A stretch of DNA of 33,325 nt, taken from sequence record SRR2962707_3777. One strand, given 5' to 3'. The notes beneath the pieces were generated by a model that ran no database searches, was not told where the DNA came from, and worked only from the letters and a program-made list of their open reading frames with translations. Below are positions 1 through 12,242 of this stretch, in pieces (position 1 is the first letter of the stretch; each line of letters opens with the position of its first letter). The position numbers were made by a program, and so were the translations under genes.

Positions 1-1825
1 CACCGCCTTCCAGATCATCTGGCGGCTGTGGAAGTCCAAGCAAAAGAAACGCATCCTGTTCCTGGCCGACCGCAACATCCTAGTCGACCAGACCAAGAAT
101 AACGACTTCAAGCCTTTCGGCCAGGCCATGACCAAGGTCACCAACCGGACGGTAGACAAATCCTACGAGATTTACCTATCGCTGTACCAAGCCGTCACCG
201 GCAGTGAAGACGAACAGAACATCTACAAGCAGTTTTCCCCGGATTTCTTCGACCTCGTGGTTATCGACGAGTGTCACCGGGGCAGCGCCTCTGTGGACTC
301 CGCTTGGCGCCAGATTCTGGAATACTTCTCGGCGGCCACCCACATCGGTCTGACCGCTACTCCCAAGGAAACCAGGGAAGTCTCCAACATCGACTACTTC
401 GGCGAGCCGGTTTACACCTACTCCCTGAAGCAAGGCATCGAAGACGGCTTTCTCGCCCCCTACAAAGTCGTGCGCATCGACCTAGACCGCGACCTGCAAG
501 GCTGGCGCCCCAGCAAGGGCCAGACCGACAAACACGGTGAGCTGATCGAAGACCGCATCTACAACCAGAAAGACTTCGACCGGCAGTTGGTTCTGGAAAA
601 GCGCACCGAAGTAGTGGCTCGGAAAGTGACCGAATTTCTCGAGCAGACCGACCCTTATCAGAAAAGCATCGTCTTCTGCGAAGACATCGACCACGCCGAA
701 CGCATGCGCCAGGCCTTGGTAAACCTGAATCCCGAGCGGGTGAAGGAGAACCGCAAGTACGTCATGCGCATTACCGGTGACGAACAGGAAGGCAAAGCCG
801 AGCTGGACAACTTCATCAACCCGGAAGAGCGTTATCCCGTCATCGCCACCACCAGCAAGCTGATGACCACCGGCGTAGACGCCCAAACCTGCAAACTCAT
901 CGTGCTGGACCAGCGCATCCAGTCCATGACCGAGTTCAAGCAAATCATCGGCCGTGGCACCCGCATCAACGACGACTACAACAAACACTGGTTCACCATT
1001 CTCGACTTCAAGAAAGCCACCGAGCTGTTCGCAGACCCGGCGTTCGACGGCGACCCAGTGAAGGTCTATGAGCCCAAGGCCGGCGAATCAGTCGTACCAG
1101 ACGACGAACAGGAAACGCTGGAACCCGATGCCACTGAACTGCCGTTAAGTGAGGAAGCCGAAGGTTACGAAATCGAGCCCGGCGAAACCTGGCACCGCGA
1201 CGACAGCCAACCCGCCTGGCCGTCCGACGACCAGGAAAAGACCAAGCGTGTGAAGTACGTGGTAGGCGATGTGGAAGTCAGCGTGATTGCCGAACGTGTC
1301 CAATACCTGGGCCCAGACGGCAAGCTCATCACCGAAAGCCTGAAGGACTTCACCCGCAAGAAAGTGAAAGAGCAGTACGCCACCCTCACCGACTTCCTCA
1401 AAGGCTGGAACGAAGCTGAGCGCAAACAGGCCATCATCGAAGAACTTGCCGAGCAAGGTGTGATGTGGGACGACCTCATCAAGGACGTCCGCAAGAAACT
1501 GGGGGCTGAGCCCGACCCCTTCGATGTCATCTGCCACATCGTCTACGACCAGCCGCCCCTGAGCCGCAAAGAACGGGCCGAGCAGGTGCGCAAACAGAAT
1601 TACTTCAGCAAATACGAGGGCGCCAGCAAACAGGTTCTAGACGCCCTGCTCGACAAGTACACCGACGACGGCATTGAGCCCATCGAAGATGTTAAAATCC
1701 TGACCCTCGCGCCGTTCAGCCAGATTGGCTCACTGATGGAACTGGTGGATGCCTTTGGCGGCAAGCCTGGCTACACCGAAGCCGTGCGAGATCTGGAAGA
1801 CGAGCTTTACCGGCAAACACCCTGA
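1..1825 (+). CDS. hsdR: Type I restriction enzyme R subunit, EcoAI/EcoEI-like (5' truncated by window)
   Basis: Frame is open from base 2 ([30 protein letters not shown]), so the ATG at 128 is internal. Contains SF2 helicase motifs DECHRGS, GLTATP, TTGVD and QIIGRGTR, an EcoEI-type C-terminal domain, and lies directly upstream of hsdM/hsdS. Confidence 0.96.
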
Positions 1826-1873
1826 TCTGATTTCCGTTTATCGCCATTCCGTTTACTCAGGAACTGAACACCT

Positions 1874-3370
1874 ATGTCTATCAGCACCACCATCAAATCC
1901 ATTCAGGACATCATGCGCAAAGACGTTGGCGTAGACGGCGATGCCCAGCGCATCGGCCAGTTGGTCTGGATGCTGTTCCTGAAAATCTTCGACGACCGGG
2001 AACAGGAATGGGAACTGATTTACGACGACTACAAATCCCCGATTCCGGAACACCTGCGCTGGCGCAACTGGGCCGCCGACCCCGAAGGCATGACCGGTGA
2101 CGAACTCAAAGACTTCATCGACAACACCCTGTTCCCCGGCCTGCAAAACCTGCAACCGGCCGGTGATGACTACCGGGGCGTGGTTATCCGCAACGTATTC
2201 GAGGATGCCTACAACTACATGAAGTCCGGCCAGCTCATGCGCCAGGTCATCAACAAGCTGCAGGACGGCATCAACTTCAACAAGTCCGCCGAGCGCCATG
2301 AGCTAGGCGATATGTACGAGCAAATCCTCAAAGACCTGCAAAGCGCCGGCAACGCCGGTGAGTTCTACACCCCGCGGGCGGTAACCGAATTCATGGTCAA
2401 CCGGGTAGACCCGAAGCTGGACGAGAAAGTGATGGACCCGGCCTGTGGCACCGGCGGCTTCCTCACCTGCACCATCGAGCACAAACGCAAACACTACGTC
2501 AGCACCCCGCAGGACGAACAAACCCTGCAAAAGAGCATTCACGGCGTTGAGAAAAAGCCCCTGCCGCACCTGCTGGCCACCACCAATATGGTGCTGCACG
2601 GTATCGAAGTGCCGGATCAGATCAAGCATGACAACACCCTGGCCCGCCCGCTCATCAGCTGGGGCCCGAAAGAACGGGTGGACGTTATCGTAGCCAACCC
2701 GCCCTTCGGCGGCATGGAAGAGGACGGCATTGAAACCAACTTCCCCAGCGCCTTCCGCACCCGGGAAACCGCCGACCTGTTCATGACCCTGTTCATCCAC
2801 CTGCTACGGGACGGTGGCCGCGCTGCGGTGGTACTGCCAGACGGCTTCCTGTTCGGTGAGGGCATGAAAACCCGCCTCAAGGAAAAGTTGCTGGACGAGT
2901 GCAACCTGCACACCATCGTGCGCCTGCCCAACGGCGTGTTTAATCCCTACACCGGCATCAAGACCAACCTGCTGTTCTTCACCAAGGGCAAGCCCACCGA
3001 AACCGTGTGGTACTACGAACACCCCTACCCGGAAGGCTACAAGAACTACAGCAAAACCAGGCCCATGAAGTTCTCCGAGTTCCAGACCGAAATCGACTGG
3101 TGGGGCTCCGAGGCCGACGGCTTCGCGAGCCGCGAGAAAACCGAGCAGGCCTGGAAGGTGTCCATCGACGACATCAAGGCCCGCAACTACAACCTGGACA
3201 TCAAGAACCCTCACGAAGGCGAACAGGTCAGCCACGACCCGGACGAATTGCTGGCCAAGTACGAACAGCAGCAGGCCGAAATCCAGGAAATCCGCCACCA
3301 ACTGCGGGACATCCTGGCCGATGCGCTCTCCCACAACACCGATGAGAACACCGACGGAGGTGCGGCGTGA
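1874..3370 (+). CDS. hsdM: Type I restriction-modification methyltransferase subunit M (N6-adenine)
   Basis: Motif I DPACGTGGFL, motif IV NPPFGG, GEFYTPR, and an EcoAI-like N-terminus (IKSIQDIMRKDVGVDGDAQR). Confidence 0.97.
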   Translation: MSISTTIKSIQDIMRKDVGVDGDAQRIGQLVWMLFLKIFDDREQEWELIYDDYKSPIPEHLRWRNWAADPEGMTGDELKDFIDNTLFPGLQNLQPAGDDYRGVVIRNVFEDAYNYMKSGQLMRQVINKLQDGINFNKSAERHELGDMYEQILKDLQSAGNAGEFYTPRAVTEFMVNRVDPKLDEKVMDPACGTGGFLTCTIEHKRKHYVSTPQDEQTLQKSIHGVEKKPLPHLLATTNMVLHGIEVPDQIKHDNTLARPLISWGPKERVDVIVANPPFGGMEEDGIETNFPSAFRTRETADLFMTLFIHLLRDGGRAAVVLPDGFLFGEGMKTRLKEKLLDECNLHTIVRLPNGVFNPYTGIKTNLLFFTKGKPTETVWYYEHPYPEGYKNYSKTRPMKFSEFQTEIDWWGSEADGFASREKTEQAWKVSIDDIKARNYNLDIKNPHEGEQVSHDPDELLAKYEQQQAEIQEIRHQLRDILADALSHNTDENTDGGAA

Positions 3371-5013
3371 GTGCGCGGGAGCTGATTACCGACCATCTGG
3401 ATTTGTGGACTGGGGCGGTCACGAAGAAGTCCAGCAGTGGCCGGGGGAGCAATGGCAAGGTTGAGTTAACTGGGGTTAAGAAGCTGCGGGAGTTGATTCT
3501 GGAGCTTGCTGTACGAGGGAAGCTAGTAGACCAGAGCCAAGAGGACGAACCTTCGAGTGAGCTCCTGAAAAAAATCGTTGCTGAAAAGGATAAGCGAATC
3601 GAAAGAGGGGAAATCAAAAAACCGAAAAAACTCCCTGCCATAAATGATGCGGAGCTGCCGTTTCAAATACCCGCCACATGGCAGTTCATCCGGTTGGGAG
3701 ACGCAGTGGACATCATTCGGGGCATCACCTTCCCAGCAAGTGAAAAGTCGAAGTCTCCTGCCGCCGGGCGGCTGGCATGTTTACGCACAACGAACGTTCA
3801 GGACACCATCGAGATCCATGACCTGCTTTACATAAAGGAGTCGTTTGTCACTAAGAACTCCCAATACATCCAGAAGCACGACATCGTCATGTCCATGGCC
3901 AACAGTAGAGAACTTGTTGGGAAAGTGGCCTTTGTTGAAGAACAACCCGATGAGCCGATGACGTTCGGTGGTTTTCTAGGAGTTTTGCGGCCGACCCTCA
4001 TTCATCCAAAGTTCTTGATGGCTGTTCTGCGGTCACCTCACTCACGAAAAACCTTGATTGGTAATGCCAGCCAAACAACGAACATAGCCAACATTTCCAT
4101 AGGTAAGCTGAACCCCTTGGTAATAGGCTTGCCACCACTAGAAGAACAACACCGCATCGTCCAAAAAGTCGATGAACTCATGGCCCTCTGCGACCGGCTG
4201 GAACAGCAAACCAGCGACCAGCTCGAAGCCCACGAAAACCTCGTGGACACCCTTCTCGGCACCCTCACCCAACCCGAAAACGCCACCGAACTGGCCGACA
4301 ACTGGGCCCGCCTCGCTGCTCACTTTGACACCCTGTTCACCACCGAACAGAGCATAGACAAGCTCAAGCAGACCATCCTACAACTGGCAACGGCTGGCAA
4401 GCTGGTGCCCTTTCAGGGCGCCCCCGTTCCACTAAAAAATTTTCTTTCTTTCGGCCCAAGAAATGGCTTTTCACCAAAAGAGAGTAACTATGAAACGGGT
4501 TGCAAGGTATTGAAGCTCGGGGCAACGACAAAGGGATGGTTAGACCTGTTAGAGAGCAAGAATGTGGACATCGGTAACTCGGTACCACCGCACCTTTGGC
4601 TAAAAAAAGGGGATATTCTGATTCAGCGAGGGAATGCCGCCAATCATGTAGGCTGCAGCGTGCTCCTTGATTCGGATTACCCAAACTACATCTACCCAGA
4701 CCTAATGATGAAGGTCAGAGTAAAGGAGGAAGTGGCGATCCCAAGCTTCGTCGCCTTATACCTCGCTGCGCCTGGGGCTCGGCAATTCATGTGGGAGCGT
4801 ATGACCGGGACATCGGGCACTATGCCGAAAATCAGCAAAAAAGTTGTCGAGGAGATCCCAGTATCCTTACCCGATATCGAAACCCAGAAAGCTGTTGTAC
4901 AAAAAGTCGACGAACTCATAACCGTCTGCGACCAACTCAAGGAACGCCTGAACCAGGCCAGCGAAACCCGCTGCCAGCTAGCCGAAGCCGTGGTTGAAAA
5001 CGCCCTTAACTAA
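3367..5013 (+). CDS. hsdS: Type I restriction-modification specificity subunit S (Type IB-like)
   Basis: GTG start overlaps the hsdM stop (GTGA). N-terminus KKLRELILELAVRGKLV..DEPSSELL is typical of EcoAI-type S subunits. Two variable TRDs are each followed by a LPPLEEQHRIVQKVDELM-type helix. Confidence 0.95.
   Translation: MSARELITDHLDLWTGAVTKKSSSGRGSNGKVELTGVKKLRELILELAVRGKLVDQSQEDEPSSELLKKIVAEKDKRIERGEIKKPKKLPAINDAELPFQIPATWQFIRLGDAVDIIRGITFPASEKSKSPAAGRLACLRTTNVQDTIEIHDLLYIKESFVTKNSQYIQKHDIVMSMANSRELVGKVAFVEEQPDEPMTFGGFLGVLRPTLIHPKFLMAVLRSPHSRKTLIGNASQTTNIANISIGKLNPLVIGLPPLEEQHRIVQKVDELMALCDRLEQQTSDQLEAHENLVDTLLGTLTQPENATELADNWARLAAHFDTLFTTEQSIDKLKQTILQLATAGKLVPFQGAPVPLKNFLSFGPRNGFSPKESNYETGCKVLKLGATTKGWLDLLESKNVDIGNSVPPHLWLKKGDILIQRGNAANHVGCSVLLDSDYPNYIYPDLMMKVRVKEEVAIPSFVALYLAAPGARQFMWERMTGTSGTMPKISKKVVEEIPVSLPDIETQKAVVQKVDELITVCDQLKERLNQASETRCQLAEAVVENALN
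4159..4933 (+). repeat. 37-bp imperfect direct repeat pair inside hsdS (4159-4195 and 4897-4933)
   Basis: GTCCAAAAAGTCGATGAACTCATGGCCCTCTGCGACC vs GTACAAAAAGTCGACGAACTCATAACCGTCTGCGACC, 32/37 identical by hand count. They encode the conserved helix after each TRD. Confidence 0.85.
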
Positions 5014-5034
5014 CCGGAAAAGGATGACCGCGCA

Positions 5035-6051
5035 GTGTACGAAAAACCGTGGCTTAGCTACCGCGAGCAACTCGATAAATTAAAGAACCGGGGACTTGCG
5101 GTTACCGATGAGCCGAAGGCACTGGAGTATCTGGAGCGCATTGGCTACTACCGGTTGAGCGGATACTGGCACCCGTTTCGTGAACGCTCCGGGTTGTTTT
5201 GCCCAATCGGTAAGGGTATCCCCCGAGGGAAGAAAACAAAGGAAACCAGTGCCGTTCTGGACAGCTTCAAGCCGGGCTCGTCTTTCGAGGCGGCCGTGCG
5301 CCTGTACGTATTCGACAAAAAGCTTCGCCTCCTTGCACTGGATGCGCTCGAGCGCATCGAAGTGGCCTTGCGGGTCGATATATCGCACACGCTGGGAAAG
5401 CATGACCCATTCGCCTACCTGAATCCGGACATTCTATTCGAGGGGTTCGCCAAGGAGGCAGACGCTAAAACAGGCCTGCCCAGACACTTGGATTGGATGA
5501 GGAAGCAGGCCACACAAATCGCCCGCTCCAAGGAAGACTTCATCAGGCACAATAAAACCAAGTATGGCCACCCTCTGCCTATCTGGATTGCCTGCGAGGT
5601 ATGGGACTTCAACACGCTGTCAGAGCTCTATGATGGCATGCGCCCGGAAGACCAAGACATCATCGCGGAGAAATATGGGATTCAGAATGGCCGTACTCTG
5701 GCCTCCTGGCTACGGAGCCTGAACTACTTACGCAACGTGTGCGCCCATCACAGCCGCTTATGGAACCGTAACGTGGTAGACCAGCCACAAAAACCGCCGA
5801 AGGGCGTTGTGCCGGACTTCGACAATGCCTGGACGCGTGGCAACGAGCATATTCTTGCCCGGCCTTTTCTGTTGCTGTGTATTTGCCAGAAGCTATTGAG
5901 CTCTATCAATCCAACGTCCAGTTGGTGGCATCGGCTCTCGGATTTACTGGCAGAATTCCCCGAAAACGAATCACTTGGGATTGGCTGGGGCGCGTTTGGC
6001 GTGTCGGATGAATGGAGAGGCTGGGAGTGTTTCCCGAAAAGCAGGCAATAA
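5035..6051 (+). CDS. AbiF/AbiD-like (Abi_2 family) abortive infection protein, HEPN ribonuclease
   Basis: Family-typical KPWLSYREQLDKLKNRGL, GYYRLSGYW, LYVFDKKLR..LERIEVALR and LPIWIACE segments, plus HEPN RxxxxH motif LRNVCAHHSRLWNR. GTG start with AAGGA upstream. Confidence 0.9.
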   Translation: MYEKPWLSYREQLDKLKNRGLAVTDEPKALEYLERIGYYRLSGYWHPFRERSGLFCPIGKGIPRGKKTKETSAVLDSFKPGSSFEAAVRLYVFDKKLRLLALDALERIEVALRVDISHTLGKHDPFAYLNPDILFEGFAKEADAKTGLPRHLDWMRKQATQIARSKEDFIRHNKTKYGHPLPIWIACEVWDFNTLSELYDGMRPEDQDIIAEKYGIQNGRTLASWLRSLNYLRNVCAHHSRLWNRNVVDQPQKPPKGVVPDFDNAWTRGNEHILARPFLLLCICQKLLSSINPTSSWWHRLSDLLAEFPENESLGIGWGAFGVSDEWRGWECFPKSRQ

Positions 6052-6258
6052 AAAACCCCGCAGCAGCTTCACTGCAGAGCAGATCCACCGATTGGGGCCG
6101 TGTTGCGACAAATAATAGACACGAGTGGTGCATTACTCAAGTGTGGCTTACCACAAATTACAAAAACCCCCGCGTAAGCTCCTATCGGAGCCAAGAGGCA
6201 GGGGTCGTGTTAGCCGGAAGGTTAAAGCCATAGCAGCTTGGCATGCAAGCAGTAATCC
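6051..6258 (+). ncRNA. Candidate AbiF-associated structured RNA, two clear tandem units plus a degenerate third
   Basis: Unit 1 (6051-6104) and unit 2 (6162-6211) both read AAAAACCCC(C)GC...AGCT-hairpin-AGC...GGGG(C/T)CGTGTT. Region 6232-6258 repeats unit 1's inner hairpin. It starts at the abiF-like stop codon. Confidence 0.65.
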
Positions 6259-6276
6259 TGGAAAACTGGAGAACCC

Positions 6277-7287
6277 ATGAAAAATGGCTGGATGATTCGC
6301 GCCGGAAACGGCGGTCGGTACTTTGACGACTTCAAAGACAACGACTGCGTGGCCATTGGTTGGAACAGCCTGGGCGACCTTCGTAACTACAACAGTCCTG
6401 AGGCGCTGAAGGAGGCCTACATACAGCACTTCGGCAACGCGAAGCCAGGGCGCACGGCCAACGCCATTGCCATGATTCGCAAGTTCCGGGACGACATCAA
6501 TCAGGGCGACACCCTCATCACCTACAGCCAGGAGCACCGGGAATACCTGGTTGGTGAAGACCTGGGGCAGTATGAGTTCCGCCCGGAATCCGAACAGGTA
6601 GGCGAATTCCAGCACATTCGGAAAGTAAAGTGGCTGGGCCGCGTATCCCGTGACCAGTTCAGCCAGGCCACCAGGAACAGTCTCGGTTCCGTTCTGACGG
6701 TATTCTCGCTGTCGGATTCTGTCATCAACGAAGTTCAGGACCGGTTGGCCGGCAAACCGGCGATACAGCCAACCACGGCTGATGAGACTCAAACAGCGGA
6801 AGCCGAGTTCGAGATTCTGAGAGAGGAAGTTGTCTCCCGCGGTCACGAGCTCATCAAAGACAAAATACAAGGCTTGGACCCGGAGGAAATGGAAGAGCTC
6901 ACCGCAGCCCTGCTCCGCGCCATGGGCTACCAGACCCGGGTTTCAGCCAGAGGGCCAGACCGTGGTGTAGATGTTCTGGCCTCCCCCGATGGCCTGGGGC
7001 TTACTCAACCCCGCATCAAGGCTGAAGTGAAGCACCGAAGCGGCAGTATGGGCTCTAACCCCATCCGTAGCTTCATCGGCGCCCTTCGAGAGGGAGACCA
7101 AGGCTTGTTCATCAGCACCGGCGGTTTTACCCGAGAAGCCCGTTACGAGGCCGAACGGGCCACCATTCCGGTGACACTCATCGACATCGATCTCTTGGCC
7201 GACCTGGTTGTGGCGAACTATGAGAGGTTTGATATTGAGGGCCAGCGACTACTGCCGTTGGTGAAGGTATACTGGCCAGCGGAGTAA
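6277..7287 (+). CDS. Mrr-family (type IV) restriction endonuclease with N-terminal putative modified-base sensing domain
   Basis: C-terminal Mrr_cat signature LLRAMGY...GPDRGVDVLA...KAEVKH...GLFISTGGFTREA...LIDIDLLADL. N-terminal WMIRAG..CVAIGW domain. GGAGA RBS upstream. Confidence 0.88.
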   Translation: MKNGWMIRAGNGGRYFDDFKDNDCVAIGWNSLGDLRNYNSPEALKEAYIQHFGNAKPGRTANAIAMIRKFRDDINQGDTLITYSQEHREYLVGEDLGQYEFRPESEQVGEFQHIRKVKWLGRVSRDQFSQATRNSLGSVLTVFSLSDSVINEVQDRLAGKPAIQPTTADETQTAEAEFEILREEVVSRGHELIKDKIQGLDPEEMEELTAALLRAMGYQTRVSARGPDRGVDVLASPDGLGLTQPRIKAEVKHRSGSMGSNPIRSFIGALREGDQGLFISTGGFTREARYEAERATIPVTLIDIDLLADLVVANYERFDIEGQRLLPLVKVYWPAE

Positions 7288-7429
7288 CCCCCCATTACTG
7301 TGTGAATCACGTGGTTCCAATACACGCACAACCCAAGAATCAACAAACACGGGTAATGTGACAGGTTATAAGGTCACTAGATTACGACCTCTCGGCTGCC
7401 TAATCGCTCTATGAGCAACTACCCGAAAG

Positions 7430-7447
7430 AACCGACTTCGTTCGGTT
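7430..7447 (-). terminator. Short hairpin at the 3' end of the serine hydrolase gene, possible terminator
   Basis: AACCGA-CTTCGT-TCGGTT inverted repeat, followed on the minus strand only by CTTT (weak U-tract). Confidence 0.3.
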
Positions 7448-8783
7448 AAGGCCGTCCCGTTGATTCCGCACCGCGCTCCTGACTCTTCAGATAATCCGCC
7501 ACAGCCCGGTAAGCCGGCAGTGAAGTCGGATCATTCGCCTCATTGCCGGCAACCGGGTTGGAGGCAAAGCGGACGATGACCATATCGGCAGCAGGATCTA
7601 TCCAGATCGTTTGGCCATGCACACCGCGCGCCGCGAACGCCCCGTGGTCGTCGTGGCTGACCCACCACATGCCACGATAGCTCCAGCCATCGAGAAGTTC
7701 ATATCCGGCTTTGGCAAACACCGCCCGGTCGCCACCATTGCGAATACTGGCAATCGCCTGGGCCGGGATAATCTGCTCGCCGGCCCACTTACCCTCGTTC
7801 AGCACGAGTAAACCGATTCGCGCCATATCACGCAACGTGGCGTTGAATCCGCCGCCAGCAAATGGAGTACCTATGGAATCGACCGTATAGAAAGCTTCAC
7901 GCTCTGCCCCGATCTTTGACCAGATACGCTCGGAAAAGTAGTCGGCAACCGAAACCCCGGTCGTTCTTGCGATCAGCCAGCCCACCACATCTGAATTAAT
8001 GGTTTTGTAGCCGAACGCTTCACCGTGCTCTCCGTCTTTTCTGACCGTTTTCAGGTAATCGAAGTAGCTTCGAGGCCCTTCACGTTGTTCGCTCACCAGA
8101 TACGGACTCCCGGCCCTGGCATAGGTCCAGACTTCGGCATCAGGATCAGAATAGTCTTCCGAGTAGTCCAGCGCGGTGGTCATATCTAGAACCTGGCGAA
8201 CCGTTGCATCACCGAATGCACTGCGTCCCAGTTCGGGAATGATGTCTCCCACCAAAGCGGTTTCATCCAGCTTGCCTTCGGCCACCAGCACCTCGCCGAG
8301 AAGCCCCGTGAGGCTCTTGGTGACGGACATTGCGCCGTGCAGAGTGCGCTCATCAAGGCAGCCATCGTAACGCTCATAAACCACCCTGCCCTGGTGCAGA
8401 ACCAGGATGCCGTCGGTGTAATTCGCGTCAAAGGCATCGCGCCAGGTTATTGAGGCCTTACCTCCCAGGGGCAAGAATTCGACCCCCTCTATGCCGGCAT
8501 CCATGTCTACAGGAAGCTCACTGACACCTTCACTGCCATTACGAACCGCAGTCGTTGGCATCAGCTCCCGAAAATGACAGACCGTCCAGCGCAGCTTGGG
8601 GAAGGCAAAATAGTCCGGATCCGTGAAGCGAATCATTTTGTCGGGCGCCGGAGGAAAACCCTGCATCAGTCCGAGAGCGTCTGGAGTGGAGTCCGGCGCA
8701 GACAGCGGTGTCGCTTCCTGGGCCACAGCAGTCCCGCCAAGCACCAGAGACAGCGCAAAGCCGAGATGTACAGCTGAGTTCAT
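7446..8783 (-). CDS. Secreted serine hydrolase, beta-lactamase/6-aminohexanoate-dimer hydrolase (NylB)-like family
   Basis: SxxK motif MSVTKS, FGYKTINSD, GGFNATLRDMARIG and ARGVHGQ. Start taken at ATG 8783 (AAGGA RBS), giving a signal peptide ending AVA-QE. Confidence 0.85.
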   Translation of the reverse strand: MNSAVHLGFALSLVLGGTAVAQEATPLSAPDSTPDALGLMQGFPPAPDKMIRFTDPDYFAFPKLRWTVCHFRELMPTTAVRNGSEGVSELPVDMDAGIEGVEFLPLGGKASITWRDAFDANYTDGILVLHQGRVVYERYDGCLDERTLHGAMSVTKSLTGLLGEVLVAEGKLDETALVGDIIPELGRSAFGDATVRQVLDMTTALDYSEDYSDPDAEVWTYARAGSPYLVSEQREGPRSYFDYLKTVRKDGEHGEAFGYKTINSDVVGWLIARTTGVSVADYFSERIWSKIGAEREAFYTVDSIGTPFAGGGFNATLRDMARIGLLVLNEGKWAGEQIIPAQAIASIRNGGDRAVFAKAGYELLDGWSYRGMWWVSHDDHGAFAARGVHGQTIWIDPAADMVIVRFASNPVAGNEANDPTSLPAYRAVADYLKSQERGAESTGRP

Positions 8784-8797
8784 TGTCTTTTCCTTAT

Positions 8798-10378
8798 TCA
8801 AAGCAGCCACTCAATTGGCAGTATCGACAACAGGAAAATCCCCGTGCGTTGCAAAAACCCTGTATTGGGTTCCTGCTCATGGCGGATGACATCGCCATCA
8901 ACGTGCTCTATCCAATAAAGCTCACCGTTCTCGGTTAGTCGAACTTCGTAAGCCCGCAACGGGATGCTTTCTTCAAAGGCCTCGTGGATCTTTTCTGAAA
9001 GCGCCGGGCTCTCAATCACAAAGCTCAGCTCGGTGTTCAGGTTGATCGAGCGGGGATCGAAATTGAAGGAGCCAACGAACAGTCTCTCGCCGTCAACGGC
9101 AAAGGTCTTTGCATGCAGGCTGGAGCCCGAACTACCGAAGGGCCCGGCACTCTGGTTCCGTTCAACATCAGGCGAGAGCCGCCGCATCTCATACAGATGG
9201 ATACCGGCCTTAAGCAGAGCCTTGCGACGTTTGGCATAACCCGCATGAACAGCGGCTACGTCGGTGGCATCAAGCGAATTGGTCAGTATGCTTACCTCAA
9301 TACCTTTGTTCGCCAAAGCCGAAAACGCATCAACACCCGCCCGGGTTGGCACGAAGTATGGGGAAATCAATGCGACCCGGGATTCGGGTTCTCCAAGAAT
9401 CTCGCCAAGCTTATACGCCAGCAGATCTTCCCTTTCAGATTTCCCAAGCCCTTTGGCGGGGCTATCACTGACCATTCGGGTTCTGGCCCAGTCGAACTCC
9501 AGTACCCCAGACAACAACTGACGCACAAAATCAGATTCGGAAACTGCCTTCACATAGTCTGTCGCCGCCTGGTCGTTCTCAAGCTTCAGCGCACGACGCT
9601 CCAGCTCGCGCAAATCCGCATCGGAAGCGGCGGGCAACAGCTGTTCAACGGGATACGCGGAGGCACTGGCCCAATAGCGATCAAAATCACTCGATACCTC
9701 AGGCACCACCGGGCCAATGGCCAGCACGTCCAGATCCGCAAAAAGAACGCCGGCGGTGGCACCAAAATACTCATCGCCGATATTCCGGCCACCGACAATG
9801 GTGGCCTGGTTATCCGCTGTGAATGACTTGTTGTGCATGCGCCGGTTAGCCCGCGAGAAGTCCGTCAGGTACCCCAACCATTTGGGATTACGGATCACAA
9901 ACGGGTTAAAGAGTCGTACTTCAATAGAAGCATGACTTGCCAAGGCAGCGAGTTCGGCGTCTAACCCGGAGGTGCCGTTATCATCCAGCAGCAACCGGAC
10001 CCGCACTCCCCGCTCAGCCGCCGTATGCAGTTCTTCCAACAGCAGTGTTCCGGTTATATCGCCATGCCAGATGTAATACTGAACGTCCAGAGTTCGATCG
10101 GCGGCGCGCGCCAGCAGAACGCGGGCAGCAAAGGCATCCCGAGGGTTTGCCAAGGTATGGATGCCACTATTACCAGGATAGCTCTCCAACTGCGGCGCAA
10201 TGGCCTGTCCGAGCCGGGTATCGGCGGCCTCATCCAGGTCCAGGGCGCTGGACTCCGATCGGTCAGCGATTGGCAATGCGCAGGCCGACAACAAGACCGA
10301 TAAAAAGAAGACCATCAGCAACGTTAACGTCCGTTGCTTTGGATTCGCGAAACCAAAATCCGGAATAAATTGTCTCAA
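8798..10378 (-). CDS. Phospholipase D family lipoprotein (cardiolipin synthase ClsC/YmdC-like)
   Basis: Two HKD motifs (RMHNKSFTAD, SLHAKTFAVD), DVQYYIWHGD, C-terminal LPIEWLL and lipobox LLSAC. Start uncertain: TTG 10378 or ATG 10315. Confidence 0.88.
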   Translation of the reverse strand: MRQFIPDFGFANPKQRTLTLLMVFFLSVLLSACALPIADRSESSALDLDEAADTRLGQAIAPQLESYPGNSGIHTLANPRDAFAARVLLARAADRTLDVQYYIWHGDITGTLLLEELHTAAERGVRVRLLLDDNGTSGLDAELAALASHASIEVRLFNPFVIRNPKWLGYLTDFSRANRRMHNKSFTADNQATIVGGRNIGDEYFGATAGVLFADLDVLAIGPVVPEVSSDFDRYWASASAYPVEQLLPAASDADLRELERRALKLENDQAATDYVKAVSESDFVRQLLSGVLEFDWARTRMVSDSPAKGLGKSEREDLLAYKLGEILGEPESRVALISPYFVPTRAGVDAFSALANKGIEVSILTNSLDATDVAAVHAGYAKRRKALLKAGIHLYEMRRLSPDVERNQSAGPFGSSGSSLHAKTFAVDGERLFVGSFNFDPRSINLNTELSFVIESPALSEKIHEAFEESIPLRAYEVRLTENGELYWIEHVDGDVIRHEQEPNTGFLQRTGIFLLSILPIEWLL

Positions 10379-10589
10379 CGTGCCTGCCCCAATAGCGCCC
10401 CAACTCGCATGAAAACAGATTTGCCCAGGTAATGACCATAGGCGTTGATATCCAATGGTCAGACTACCATGTCGCTGGCGTCCGCCCTCTGCCCTATTAA
10501 CAATCGGGCGATTATTCAGCCGGTCCTGGCGCAAACACCATCCTTAGCCATTCTCACAATTAAATTTACAAATCTTTTTCAAACTCAAC

Positions 10590-10616
10590 TAAAAATTCAG
10601 GAGAAAATGCCGTATA
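10590..10616 (+). promoter_or_regulatory. Putative sigma28 (FliA) promoter for the chemoreceptor
   Basis: TAAA-N15-GCCGTATA against consensus TAAA-N15-GCCGATAA, about 60 nt upstream of an MCP gene. Confidence 0.55.
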
Positions 10617-10673
10617 CCGTTTCAACAGGCCATTAAATGACTCGCAGGGAGGCGGTTACCAAAGGAAAAATCG

Positions 10674-12242
10674 ATGCGTGCTTTTTGGGGAAACCTTGCG
10701 GTGGGAAAGAAGCTGGCTTCCAGCTTTGCGATTCTGGTGCTGCTCATCCTGATCGTCGCGGTCGTCAGCATCACCTCACTCAACGACTACAACCATCGCG
10801 TATCGATATTAAAACAGGCCAACCAAGCTGAAATCTCGTTGCTGGAGGCTGAGCGGGAGGAGAAGAACTATCGGATACACGAAACCCCCAAATCCATTGA
10901 TCGAGCCGCCGACTACCTGGTGCAAACCAAAGCCGCTCTGGCCACATTGATGACACTGATCCAAAACGAAAGCGACCGGCAACTGGTCGAACAGATACGC
11001 GCCGATATCGAAGATTATCAGTCTCTCCTGAGCACCTATACGGCAAGCATATCCGCAGGCACTGCTGATACGTCGTCTATCGAAGAACAACTATTCAAAG
11101 CCGCTCACAACGCCATTGACAAGACCGAGGAACTGAAAGAACGCGAGCGGATTCTGATGGAAGAGCGATATGACCTGACGGTTATCGAAATCATCGCTAT
11201 AACCGCACTGGCCATGTTTGTGGCGGCGATCGTGGCATGGACCCTCACTCGCTCAATAACACGCCCGATTAATGAAACCCTGAGTATTGCCAACAAGGTT
11301 GCATCGGGCGACCTCACCGTGGATAGCCGAAGTAGTCGCGGTGACGAGTTTGGCCAGCTGTTGGCAGCGTTTGGCATCATGGTCACCAACCTCCGGGGAC
11401 TGATTCAGGAAATCAATCAGGGTGCGGCCAGCATCGCTTCGGCGTCAGAGGAACTCTCTGCGGTCACCCACCAGACAAATATGGGAGTCGCCGAGCAGAA
11501 GTCGCAAACAGATCAGGTCGCCACAGCGCTGAATCAGATGGTCGCGACGGTCACTGAAGTTGCTCGAAGTGCCGAAGCCGCCTTTCAGTCCGCAAATCAC
11601 TGCAGCGACAAGACAGAAAGTGGAACAGCGGCTACCAACGAGACCCTCAGCTTCGTATCCGAGCTGAACTCGCAAAGCACCTCGGTCATGCAGCAACTCA
11701 ATACCCTGAAAGCCGAAACCGACAATATCGGCACGGTGCTGGACGTTATCAAAGCAGTTGCTGAGCAGACCAACCTTCTGGCGCTGAATGCTGCGATCGA
11801 GGCTGCCCGGGCCGGAGACCAGGGGCGCGGCTTTGCCGTAGTGGCGGATGAAGTAAGATCGCTTGCCAAGCGAACCCAAACGTCTGCAGTGGAAATCGAG
11901 TCCTTGATCGGCAACCTTCTCGCCAGCGCCGAAGCGGCCGTATCAGACATGGGGCGCGGGCACCAATTAGCCAAGCAAACACTGGAACGGGCAGAACTGG
12001 GAGGCACAGCCATTCAGGCCATTGCGGAAGCTGTTGAAGAGATTCGCCGTTACAACAGCCAGATCGCTACCGCCGCTGATCAACAGATTTCGGTTGCCGA
12101 AGACATGAACAAGAATATGACTCAGATCCGGGATATTGGAGACCAGTCTGCGGCCTCCACGGAGCAGGTATCGGCGGCCAGCGAGGAGCTGGCAAGACTA
12201 GCCGAAGGGCTTCACACGCAAATCGCGCAATTCCGGTACTGA
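10674..12242 (+). CDS. Methyl-accepting chemotaxis protein
   Basis: Two TM helices around a helical periplasmic domain, a HAMP domain, and signalling hairpin [40 protein letters not shown]. Confidence 0.96.

Follow-up and report, generated by a model that had tools for sequence, protein, structure and literature searches.

The DNA analysed here is a stretch of 33,325 nucleotides from sequence record SRR2962707_3777 (the window), which carries near its beginning a type I restriction-modification (R-M) operon with an abi gene inside it, only 21 nt separating the hsdS stop codon from the abi start, and an mrr-like gene further on (Table 1). Between abi and mrr lie two short hairpin units, unit 1 at the abi stop codon and unit 2 beyond it, which appear to be small-RNA genes read against the direction of the operon. 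The Abi protein matches Pfam family PF07751 (Abi_2) with 194 bits (cut-off 25.6; E 3.7e-57), the PADLOC AbiD model (7.4e-61) and the PDB chain 8vz6_A (PbAbiF, solved together with its RNA; E 1.7e-31, residues 2-49 and 77-313), and its RNVCAH motif agrees with the HEPN pattern R-(N/H/D)-x-x-x-H. By these matches, the AbiF-like HEPN RNase recognised in an earlier note on this DNA is borne out as an AbiD/F-type HEPN family protein. No second Abi_2 gene was found in the window.

Table 1. Genes, motifs and predicted small-RNA elements at the abi locus, in window coordinates.
Feature	Position	Strand	Basis
hsdR, C-terminal part (type I R-M)	2-1825	+	Pfam EcoEI_R_C/ResIII
hsdM (type I R-M)	1874-3370	+	Pfam N6_Mtase/HsdM_N
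hsdS (type I R-M)	3367-5013	+	Pfam Methylase_S
abi, 338 aa, Abi_2 / AbiD-F family HEPN protein, GTG start	5035-6051	+	Pfam, PADLOC, PDB
HEPN catalytic motif RNVCAH, residues 233-238	5731-5748	+	translation; aligned with RNSCCH of 8vz6_A
abi stop codon, TAA	6049-6051	+	
Unit 1, predicted class A small-RNA gene, ~55 nt	6050-6104	-	class A model R1, 83.4 bits; RNAalifold, pair counts, strand test
Unit 1 U-tract (complement of these positions), overlapping the abi stop codon	6050-6055	-	
Unit 1 helix P1	6094-6097 with 6056-6059	-	
Unit 1 helix P2	6064-6066 with 6088-6090	-	covariation
Unit 1 helix P3	6072-6075 with 6079-6082	-	covariation
Unit 1 predicted promoter: -35 TTGAGT (6135-6140), 17-nt spacer, -10 TATTAT (6112-6117)	6112-6140	-	generic promoter scan and comparison
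Unit 2, predicted orphan class C small-RNA gene, ~50 nt	6162-6211	-	model R2, 55.8 bits; alignment A2, pair counts
Unit 2 U-tract (complement of these positions)	6162-6166	-	
Unit 2 helix P1	6198-6204 with 6167-6173	-	
Unit 2 hairpin	6187-6191 with 6178-6182	-	
Unit 2 weaker promoter-like site: -35 TTGCAT (6243-6248), 18-nt spacer, -10 TAACCT (6219-6224)	6219-6248	-	read from sequence
mrr-like restriction endonuclease gene	6277-7287	+	Pfam Mrr_cat 3.8e-24; PADLOC candidate PDC-S02 2e-91

The earlier note placed unit 1 at 6051-6104 and unit 2 at 6162-6211, 57 nt apart, and gave both an outer CCCC/GGGG stem and a conserved CGTGTT tail, all of which is correct in the letters, the common end reading ...GGGGYCGTGTT. 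As for the inner hairpins, the GCTCC/GGAGC pairing of unit 2 is real, while the GCTT/GAGC pairing proposed for unit 1 is wrong, the helices backed by covariation being P2 and P3. In the window alone, the GGGGYCGTGTT repeat (up to one mismatch) has 2 matches against 1.79 expected, which is not beyond chance, and the 241-nt region folds no better than its shuffles (z -1.15 on the plus strand and -0.94 on the minus strand). The units were accepted as real because in other genomes they are conserved with covariation, their position at the abi stop codon being fixed. In what follows, class A stands for the unit-1-like elements, class B for the Burkholderiales type and class C for the unit-2 type.

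The plus strand implied by the earlier note is the wrong one, since promoters, U-tracts, G-U pairs and folds all favour the minus strand. Read on the latter, all elements share one build: TTGnnn and TAnnnT, 16-18 nt apart, are followed after about 7 nt by the leader AAYAYGR, then by an irregular hairpin with a closing G-C stem and finally by a U-tract, which is present only on this strand. When 55 distinct upstream stretches of 50 nt were compared, the information content rose to peaks at -36..-34 (TTG), -13/-12 (TA) and -9/-8 (AT) and nowhere else. These stretches came from 57 elements caught by an anchor expression which misses leaders with C at position 7, after removal of two false matches. 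The pattern TTGnnn-N16-18-TAnnnT stood in its fixed place in 42 of the 55, as against none of 54 on the opposite strand; 500 shuffles gave a mean of 0.2 and a maximum of 3. Moreover, the helix cells of class A comprise 261 Watson-Crick, 31 G-U and 5 mismatched pairs on the minus strand, and 261, 2 and 34, respectively, on the plus strand; as the G-U pairs of the former turn into mismatches on the latter, the minus strand was taken to be that of the RNA. In agreement with this, RNAalifold gave -12.18 kcal/mol and three helices for class A on the minus strand, against -6.69 kcal/mol with P2 lost on the plus strand. Single-sequence folding followed the same direction, both for unit 1 (-18.6 against -11.8 kcal/mol) and for unit 2 (-26.8 kcal/mol, z -5.29, against -20.5 kcal/mol).

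Each unit is thus predicted to be an independent minus-strand gene, running from a sigma-70-type promoter of its own to an intrinsic terminator which the CCCC/GGGG stem and the U-tract make up. The former "CGTGTT tail" is the putative 5' leader of the RNA (AACACG), the A-run at the stop codon is the predicted terminator U-tract, and the 57-nt interval is the putative holder of the unit 1 promoter and not a spacer. This interval (6105-6161), whose variability the earlier note proposed to check, hardly differs in L001, L002, L013 and L062, the four further loci with both units, and it contains the -10 and -35 boxes of unit 1. The -10 box sits 7 nt before the AACACG start, and the predicted first nucleotide of unit 1 is A6104 (5'-AACACGGCCCC...); the unit 2 RNA would begin 5'-AACACGACCCC... 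The promoter-like site of unit 2 was not called by the generic promoter scan, and other Marinobacter copies of this unit have TAATCT/CATAAT at that position. Since the -10 box of unit 2 is weak, its expression is uncertain.

A scan with peptide words from the window protein, which collects relatives and not an unbiased sample, yielded 69 loci, spanning Marinobacter, Halomonas, Marinomonas, Neptuniibacter, Vibrio, Shewanella, Thiohalobacter, many Burkholderiales, and single Acidobacteriota and other bins. All the loci read at 53% identity or more have a unit-1-like element at or just past the abi stop codon, and the element is conserved at the nucleotide level, since it is kept even where the open reading frame (ORF) ends earlier. 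At 44-48% identity, the relatives have an element of different sequence in this position (AAAACCGRCGCGTACAC...GTGCAGAGGCGYCGGYCRTATT). Altogether, an intact RNA lies convergent at the abi 3' end in 60 of the 63 full-length relatives (41-96% identity), comprising 26 elements of class A, 30 of 31 of class B and 4 of class C, while the other three have a truncated copy (L055), an upstream copy (L059) or none that could be found (L058). Searching 151 sampled genomes of the family with model R1 gave one match in each of six genomes, and all six adjoin an abi 3' end, even though one of these abi genes is frameshifted and another truncated. Unit 1 is therefore not a dispersed repeat, being single in each genome and always at abi.

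The covariation check suggested in the earlier note was run by pair counts, shuffles and slid registers, and the fold was supported. The class A alignment (32 rows, 30 distinct) has 98.3% of its cells paired, with 4 pairs and 22 cells changed on both sides, and the class B plus C alignment (39 rows, 36 distinct) 99.4%, with 7 of 10 pairs and 35 cells so changed. None of 500 shuffles reached the observed covariation score in either alignment, a control which can be inflated by related sequences; the slid registers, which keep the relatedness, paired 37-52% of the cells in class A and 25-47% in class B plus C. The helices of class A are P1 (CCCC/GGGG), P2 (CGG/CUG) and P3, a variable hairpin, and one P2 pair varies between G-U (18), A-U (9) and G-C (3).

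The tandem array of diverged units which the earlier note had described does not hold, since unit 2 belongs to another RNA class, tied to another abi clade, and is also found solitary beside mrr. Its score is 17.8 bits with the class A model and 55.8 bits with the class B/C model, and it aligns over its full length with class B, sharing GCCUCU...hairpin...UACGCG. Nine loci encode the proteins nearest to that of the window (76-96% identical; L001-L007, L013 and L019); unit 1 stands alone in six of them and unit 2 is also present in three (L001, L002 and L013). In the same 151 genomes, model R2 gave 22 matches in 20 genomes. Four of them (L098, L100, L102, L103) are class C RNAs adjoining abi genes of a third clade, whose identity to the window protein is 43-46% (with Abi_2 confirmed for L100), two (L082, L083) are class B RNAs adjoining their own abi, and four (L089, L091, L093, L099) represent unit 2 next to unit 1 plus abi. 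Seven (L085, L088, L090, L092, L094, L095, L096) have no abi within 1.5 kb, one (L097) is next to a 77-aa abi remnant, three (L086, L087, L101) adjoin a HipA gene, this neighbour being verified in Pfam for L086 only and assigned to L087 by its matching flank, and one (L084) lies at a contig end. A quick maximum-likelihood tree of the 63 full-length proteins, from which duplicates were left out, as was any match that fell short of 290 aa or had stops in it, maps the RNA classes to protein clades: the 26 rows of class A are set apart by one branch (support 94), class B corresponds to a clade of 31 (support 100; two of these were wrongly labelled "none" by the text expression used, and both have R2 matches) and class C to 4 rows (support 99).

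At least 10 of the 22 R2 matches are RNA genes without a toxin, such orphans being common in Marinobacter, compared with 2 of 63 intact abi genes without an intact RNA. As orphan RNAs are frequent and toxins without RNA are rare, the pattern is of the antidote type. The gene order of related loci also bears on unit 2, since the Mrr next to unit-2-type RNA in L102, L072/L085 and L090 is 85-97% identical to that of the window; L102 has a clade C abi, a class C RNA and an Mrr at 85%, whereas L072/L085 and L090 have RNA plus mrr without abi. Seen against these loci, the order abi A, RNA A, RNA C, mrr of the window points to the replacement of a clade-C abi whose RNA gene was left behind, and unit 2 is best read, on this comparison of sequences, as the putative leftover partner RNA of that lost gene, beside mrr.

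Several further loci deserve description. In L072 (M. halophilus; 1715-2907), the orphan RNA and mrr come after a DUF3800 gene and a 169-aa ORF without Pfam match, and in L086 a HipA-family kinase toxin gene (ORF 1548-2777, minus strand; HipA_C 6.6e-51) has an orphan class B RNA (1501-1546) at its stop codon, in the way abi has in other loci; L087 and L101 show the same. In L013/L077 (M. persicus) abi is frameshifted and in L062/L081 (M. fuscus) only its last 110 codons remain, units 1 and 2 being kept in both; the M. fuscus copies have mismatches in P1 of unit 1 and in the hairpin of unit 2, which looks like early decay. L020, from Marinomonas, has three class A RNA copies (2141-2199, 2603-2664, 3995-4053), two of them orphan and one orphan with a near-duplicate promoter. 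The cassette of this genus (L020, and also L015, L018 and L027 downstream of abi) sits at the 3' end of a gene which we take to be polA-like, the last codons of which (...GDNWDEAH) are duplicated on both sides, and the site looks like a hot spot with repeated insertion and erosion. In L055 (Halothiobacillus bin; ~3940-3978) a full-length abi of 45% identity is accompanied by an RNA whose 3' half, including the 3' strand of P1, is gone, which may represent a toxin without intact RNA or an assembly artefact. The nearest genome compared with the window (G001) has neither the locus, nor the unit pattern, nor the 4900-7400 stretch, and the abi-mrr part consequently differs between strains. Past the island (7446-12242), the window continues with genes for a beta-lactamase-family protein (serine hydrolase) and a two-domain PLD protein on the minus strand, followed by a methyl-accepting chemotaxis gene.

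A few relatives have the RNA on the other side of the toxin gene. In L059 (Acidobacteriaceae, 41% identity), the R2 match (33.1 bits) lies on the plus strand just upstream of abi, with a promoter-like site ahead of it and a U-tract which ends a few bases before the abi start codon. Two gut phage-like contigs, L105 and L106, with Abi_2 genes at 37-41% identity, also have the RNA upstream in sense, L106 reading TTGAAT-N17-TATATC-N7-AACAUGGCCGCCCCCUCUG... (R2 22.2 bits, E 6e-4) and L105 giving a weak match (12.4 bits). These three upstream RNAs retain the leader AAYAYGR, P1, the CCUCU loop, the U-rich end and a promoter of their own. This is the canonical AbiF layout, as described for RCd22 (PMC12373285) and summarised in sections of PMC13064643 and PMC12737573. 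As the partnership of RNA and abi survives a change of both place and orientation, action in trans is favoured over a cis element.

The same loci speak against antisense (type I-like) or interference control, in which pairing in cis with the read-through operon mRNA, or colliding polymerases, would tune the expression of abi or of mrr/hsdR, instead of the RNA binding the protein. The RNA genes do lie inside a co-directional operon, the plus strand has no U-tract, so that read-through is likely, many class B loci have the next gene in the same direction, and complementarity to a read-through mRNA is perfect by construction. Nevertheless, there is nothing for the upstream sense RNAs of L059, L106 and L105 to be antisense to, covariation keeps the fold and not the sequence, and the orphans keep fold and promoter beside unrelated genes (HipA, DUF3800), so that this explanation seems unlikely. 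That the RNA leader might pair with the start region of abi was also considered and set aside, only 4 nt matching by eye.

The Rfam abiF model proposed in the earlier note (RF03085) found no match at E<=10 in 4500-7500 or in 6030-6270 on either strand, nor at E<=1 in L058, L059, L105 and L106, while the positive control, phage phiC2, gave two motifs of 37.6 and 19.5 bits (gathering score 37 bits); moreover, no Rfam family matches the units. When the RF03085 consensus (CCCGCC-A-AGC-CUCUCA...GCU-CAAAUC-GGCGGG) was compared with classes B and C (L104 415-502 against alignment A2), only a G-C-closed hairpin and an unpaired GCCUCU by the basal stem were shared. The latter may reflect a contact with the HEPN site that both have in common, or mere chance, and is a lead, not homology. 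The systems of AbiF and its non-coding RNA (PbAbiF-AbiFr, PDB 8VZ6; AbiFCd-RCd22 of the C. difficile prophage phi027/phiC2; RF03085) nevertheless have in common with the present one a homologous Abi_2 protein with the Rx4H HEPN motif, a short, tightly gene-linked, G-C-closed hairpin RNA with conserved C/U-rich unpaired residues, and a sigma-70/SigA-type promoter and Rho-independent terminator of its own (predicted here), two RNA motifs per locus being reported for RCd22 as well in part of PMC12373285. The differences lie in the layout, the known RNA being upstream, on the same strand and co-transcribed by read-through, according to portions of PMC12373285 and PMC13064643, whereas here the RNA is downstream and convergent, with its terminator on the toxin stop, and in the architecture, with P1, P2, P3 and a 5' leader here and a 37-nt RNA with a 6-bp plus 3-bp hairpin in RF03085.

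That the RNA neutralises AbiF through direct binding is stated in parts of PMC12737573, PMC12373285 and PMC13064643. A different role was also weighed, in which the HEPN protein would depend on the RNA as cofactor or sensor (as an activator, a specificity subunit or a guide-like partner) and would not be inhibited by it. The tight linkage, the match between class and clade and the conserved unpaired leader AAYAYGR would suit any stable ribonucleoprotein, and Cas13 is thought, in a section of PMC12737573, to have derived from AbiF plus its RNA. However, frequent orphan RNAs and rare toxins without RNA point to an antidote and not to a cofactor, the two sides of the variable part covary and close into a hairpin, which leaves no free guide segment, and the characterised relatives are inhibited by their RNA, as far as the relevant parts of PMC12373285 and PMC13064643 go; a cofactor role is accordingly held to be improbable.

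Compared with the type III toxin-antitoxin systems (ToxIN, AbiQ/antiQ, TenpIN, CptIN), the locus has a protein RNase toxin presumed to be neutralised by a cis-encoded structured RNA, a place among defence genes and, as the expected trigger, the loss of a labile RNA. The structured RNA gene is in fact linked to a protein RNase toxin family in 60 of 63 relatives and in 6 of 6 R1 matches. The antitoxins of those systems, however, are tandem direct repeats upstream of the toxin which are cut by the toxin itself, whereas no upstream repeats were found here, each RNA being a single predicted primary transcript from promoter to terminator, and the toxin fold is HEPN and not ToxN/AbiQ. Finally, unit 2 and at least 10 other copies, which keep promoter, fold and terminator without a toxin gene, recall the orphan antitoxins left after toxin loss, with the difference that the orphan is here an RNA gene.

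A further explanation denies the units any RNA function and takes them for mere terminators, for REP-like palindromes or for scars that recombination left at the borders of cassettes. The units do resemble terminators on the minus strand, and they stand at borders where synteny between genomes breaks. Even so, no minus-strand gene runs into them, a promoter being found instead ~50 nt upstream, and their conserved unpaired nucleotides and covarying internal helices exceed what a terminator needs. The R1 matches in the 151 genomes, one copy per genome and always at abi, rule out a REP/MITE or a plain terminator, and the whole explanation is distinctly improbable. An integron attC-like site was also rejected, no match to the core-site consensus being seen by eye.

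There remains the version of the earlier note, in which plus-strand units in the abi 3' untranslated region would form a multi-copy antitoxin array or a HEPN-processed repeat-spacer-repeat proto-CRISPR array, and which, although two units with similar ends stand 57 nt apart directly past the stop codon and two or three units also occur in L020, L041 and L048, is very unlikely indeed, since on the plus strand the G-U pairs become mismatches, P2 is lost and the promoter signal falls to 0 of 54, the supposed "spacer" is conserved and holds the unit 1 promoter, the units are not near-identical and fall into separate classes, each with a protein clade of its own, and unit 1 is alone in 6 of the 9 closest loci while unit 2 is solitary elsewhere. 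A HEPN RNase with an adjoining hairpin RNA is what the locus shares with a CRISPR-Cas13 array, the likeness of the units to a Cas13 direct-repeat stem resting on a 4-bp G-C stem, but here the RNAs are not identical repeats separated by variable spacers, lie opposite the gene strand with a terminator each, and are not accompanied by cas1/cas2 genes.

The explanation held to be the probable one, by sequence evidence and by analogy with the relatives, is that the units are minus-strand RNA genes, unit 1 encoding the cognate type III-like antitoxin, acting in trans, and unit 2 an orphan class C partner RNA. Of the RNA antitoxin of the earlier note, the part which stands is the linked, conserved and structured RNA, for which an antitoxin role is the best reading; the RNA is however on the opposite strand and not in a multi-copy array. 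Several points weigh against this explanation. In Marinobacter, the minimum-energy fold of unit 1 is another, 10-bp terminator-like hairpin (z only -0.86), which directly precedes the U-tract and competes with the covariation-supported P1/P2/P3 fold; this suggests that the RNA may have two alternative conformations. RF03085 fails to match the units, a hairpin with C/U-rich unpaired residues (GCCUCU) being the only common feature, and its layout of an upstream RNA on the same strand is absent, with 21 nt between hsdS and abi and both RNAs downstream on the opposite strand. Furthermore, convergent RNA genes in an operon are perfectly complementary to any read-through mRNA, which makes an antisense effect possible; two intact-looking abi genes have no intact RNA nearby (L055 and L058, both from metagenome bins); promoter, start and end of the units are predictions; the clade support comes from the quick version of the tree; and the relatives were gathered by their likeness to the window protein.

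The mechanism proposed for the antitoxin is as follows. Unit 1 would be read from its own promoter, starting at about AACACG and ending at the intrinsic terminator, to give a primary transcript of ~55 nt, and unit 2 would likewise give one of ~50 nt. The folded unit 1 RNA would bind the Abi HEPN dimer and block its RNase site, as AbiFr and RCd22 do. Being presumably short-lived, the RNA would be lost when, for example, a phage shuts off host transcription, and the toxin would be set free. As to the history of the locus, a clade-C abi probably once stood between unit 2 and the upstream genes, to be replaced later by a class A cassette consisting of abi and unit 1.

The AbiF RNA described so far is upstream, co-transcribed and known from Bacillota and Bacteroidota, in the portions of PMC12373285, PMC13064643 and PMC12737573 which deal with it. 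In the literature searched only upstream AbiF RNAs were found, none being downstream or convergent, with the proviso that those reported here may already figure in Zilberzwige-Tal et al. (Cell 2025) or in its supplements. A large proteobacterial branch carries a different RNA family, some 80 elements of which were found in this work, and its RNA gene appears, from its predicted signals, to be autonomous, occurring on either side and on either strand of the toxin gene. In practical terms, annotation gains a missing component, since alignments A1 and A2 can serve as the basis of covariance models, and a caution is also provided, namely that pairs of hairpins past a HEPN gene are not nascent CRISPR arrays. 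Moreover, the match between RNA class and protein clade is a natural experiment on RNA-protein specificity, and the orphan RNA genes are a way to ask whether antitoxin RNAs persist as protection. In a wider and more tentative sense, which we regard as possible though doubtful, the AbiF-type toxins of Proteobacteria (Gamma- and Beta-), typically placed in type I R-M operons, may use an RNA-antitoxin family of their own, with three co-evolving classes absent from Rfam. Its gene would have moved from upstream sense to a convergent position at the toxin stop codon, uncoupling the antitoxin from toxin transcription, and selection would retain orphans like unit 2 as a standing immunity (anti-addiction) against AbiF toxins of other classes on mobile DNA.

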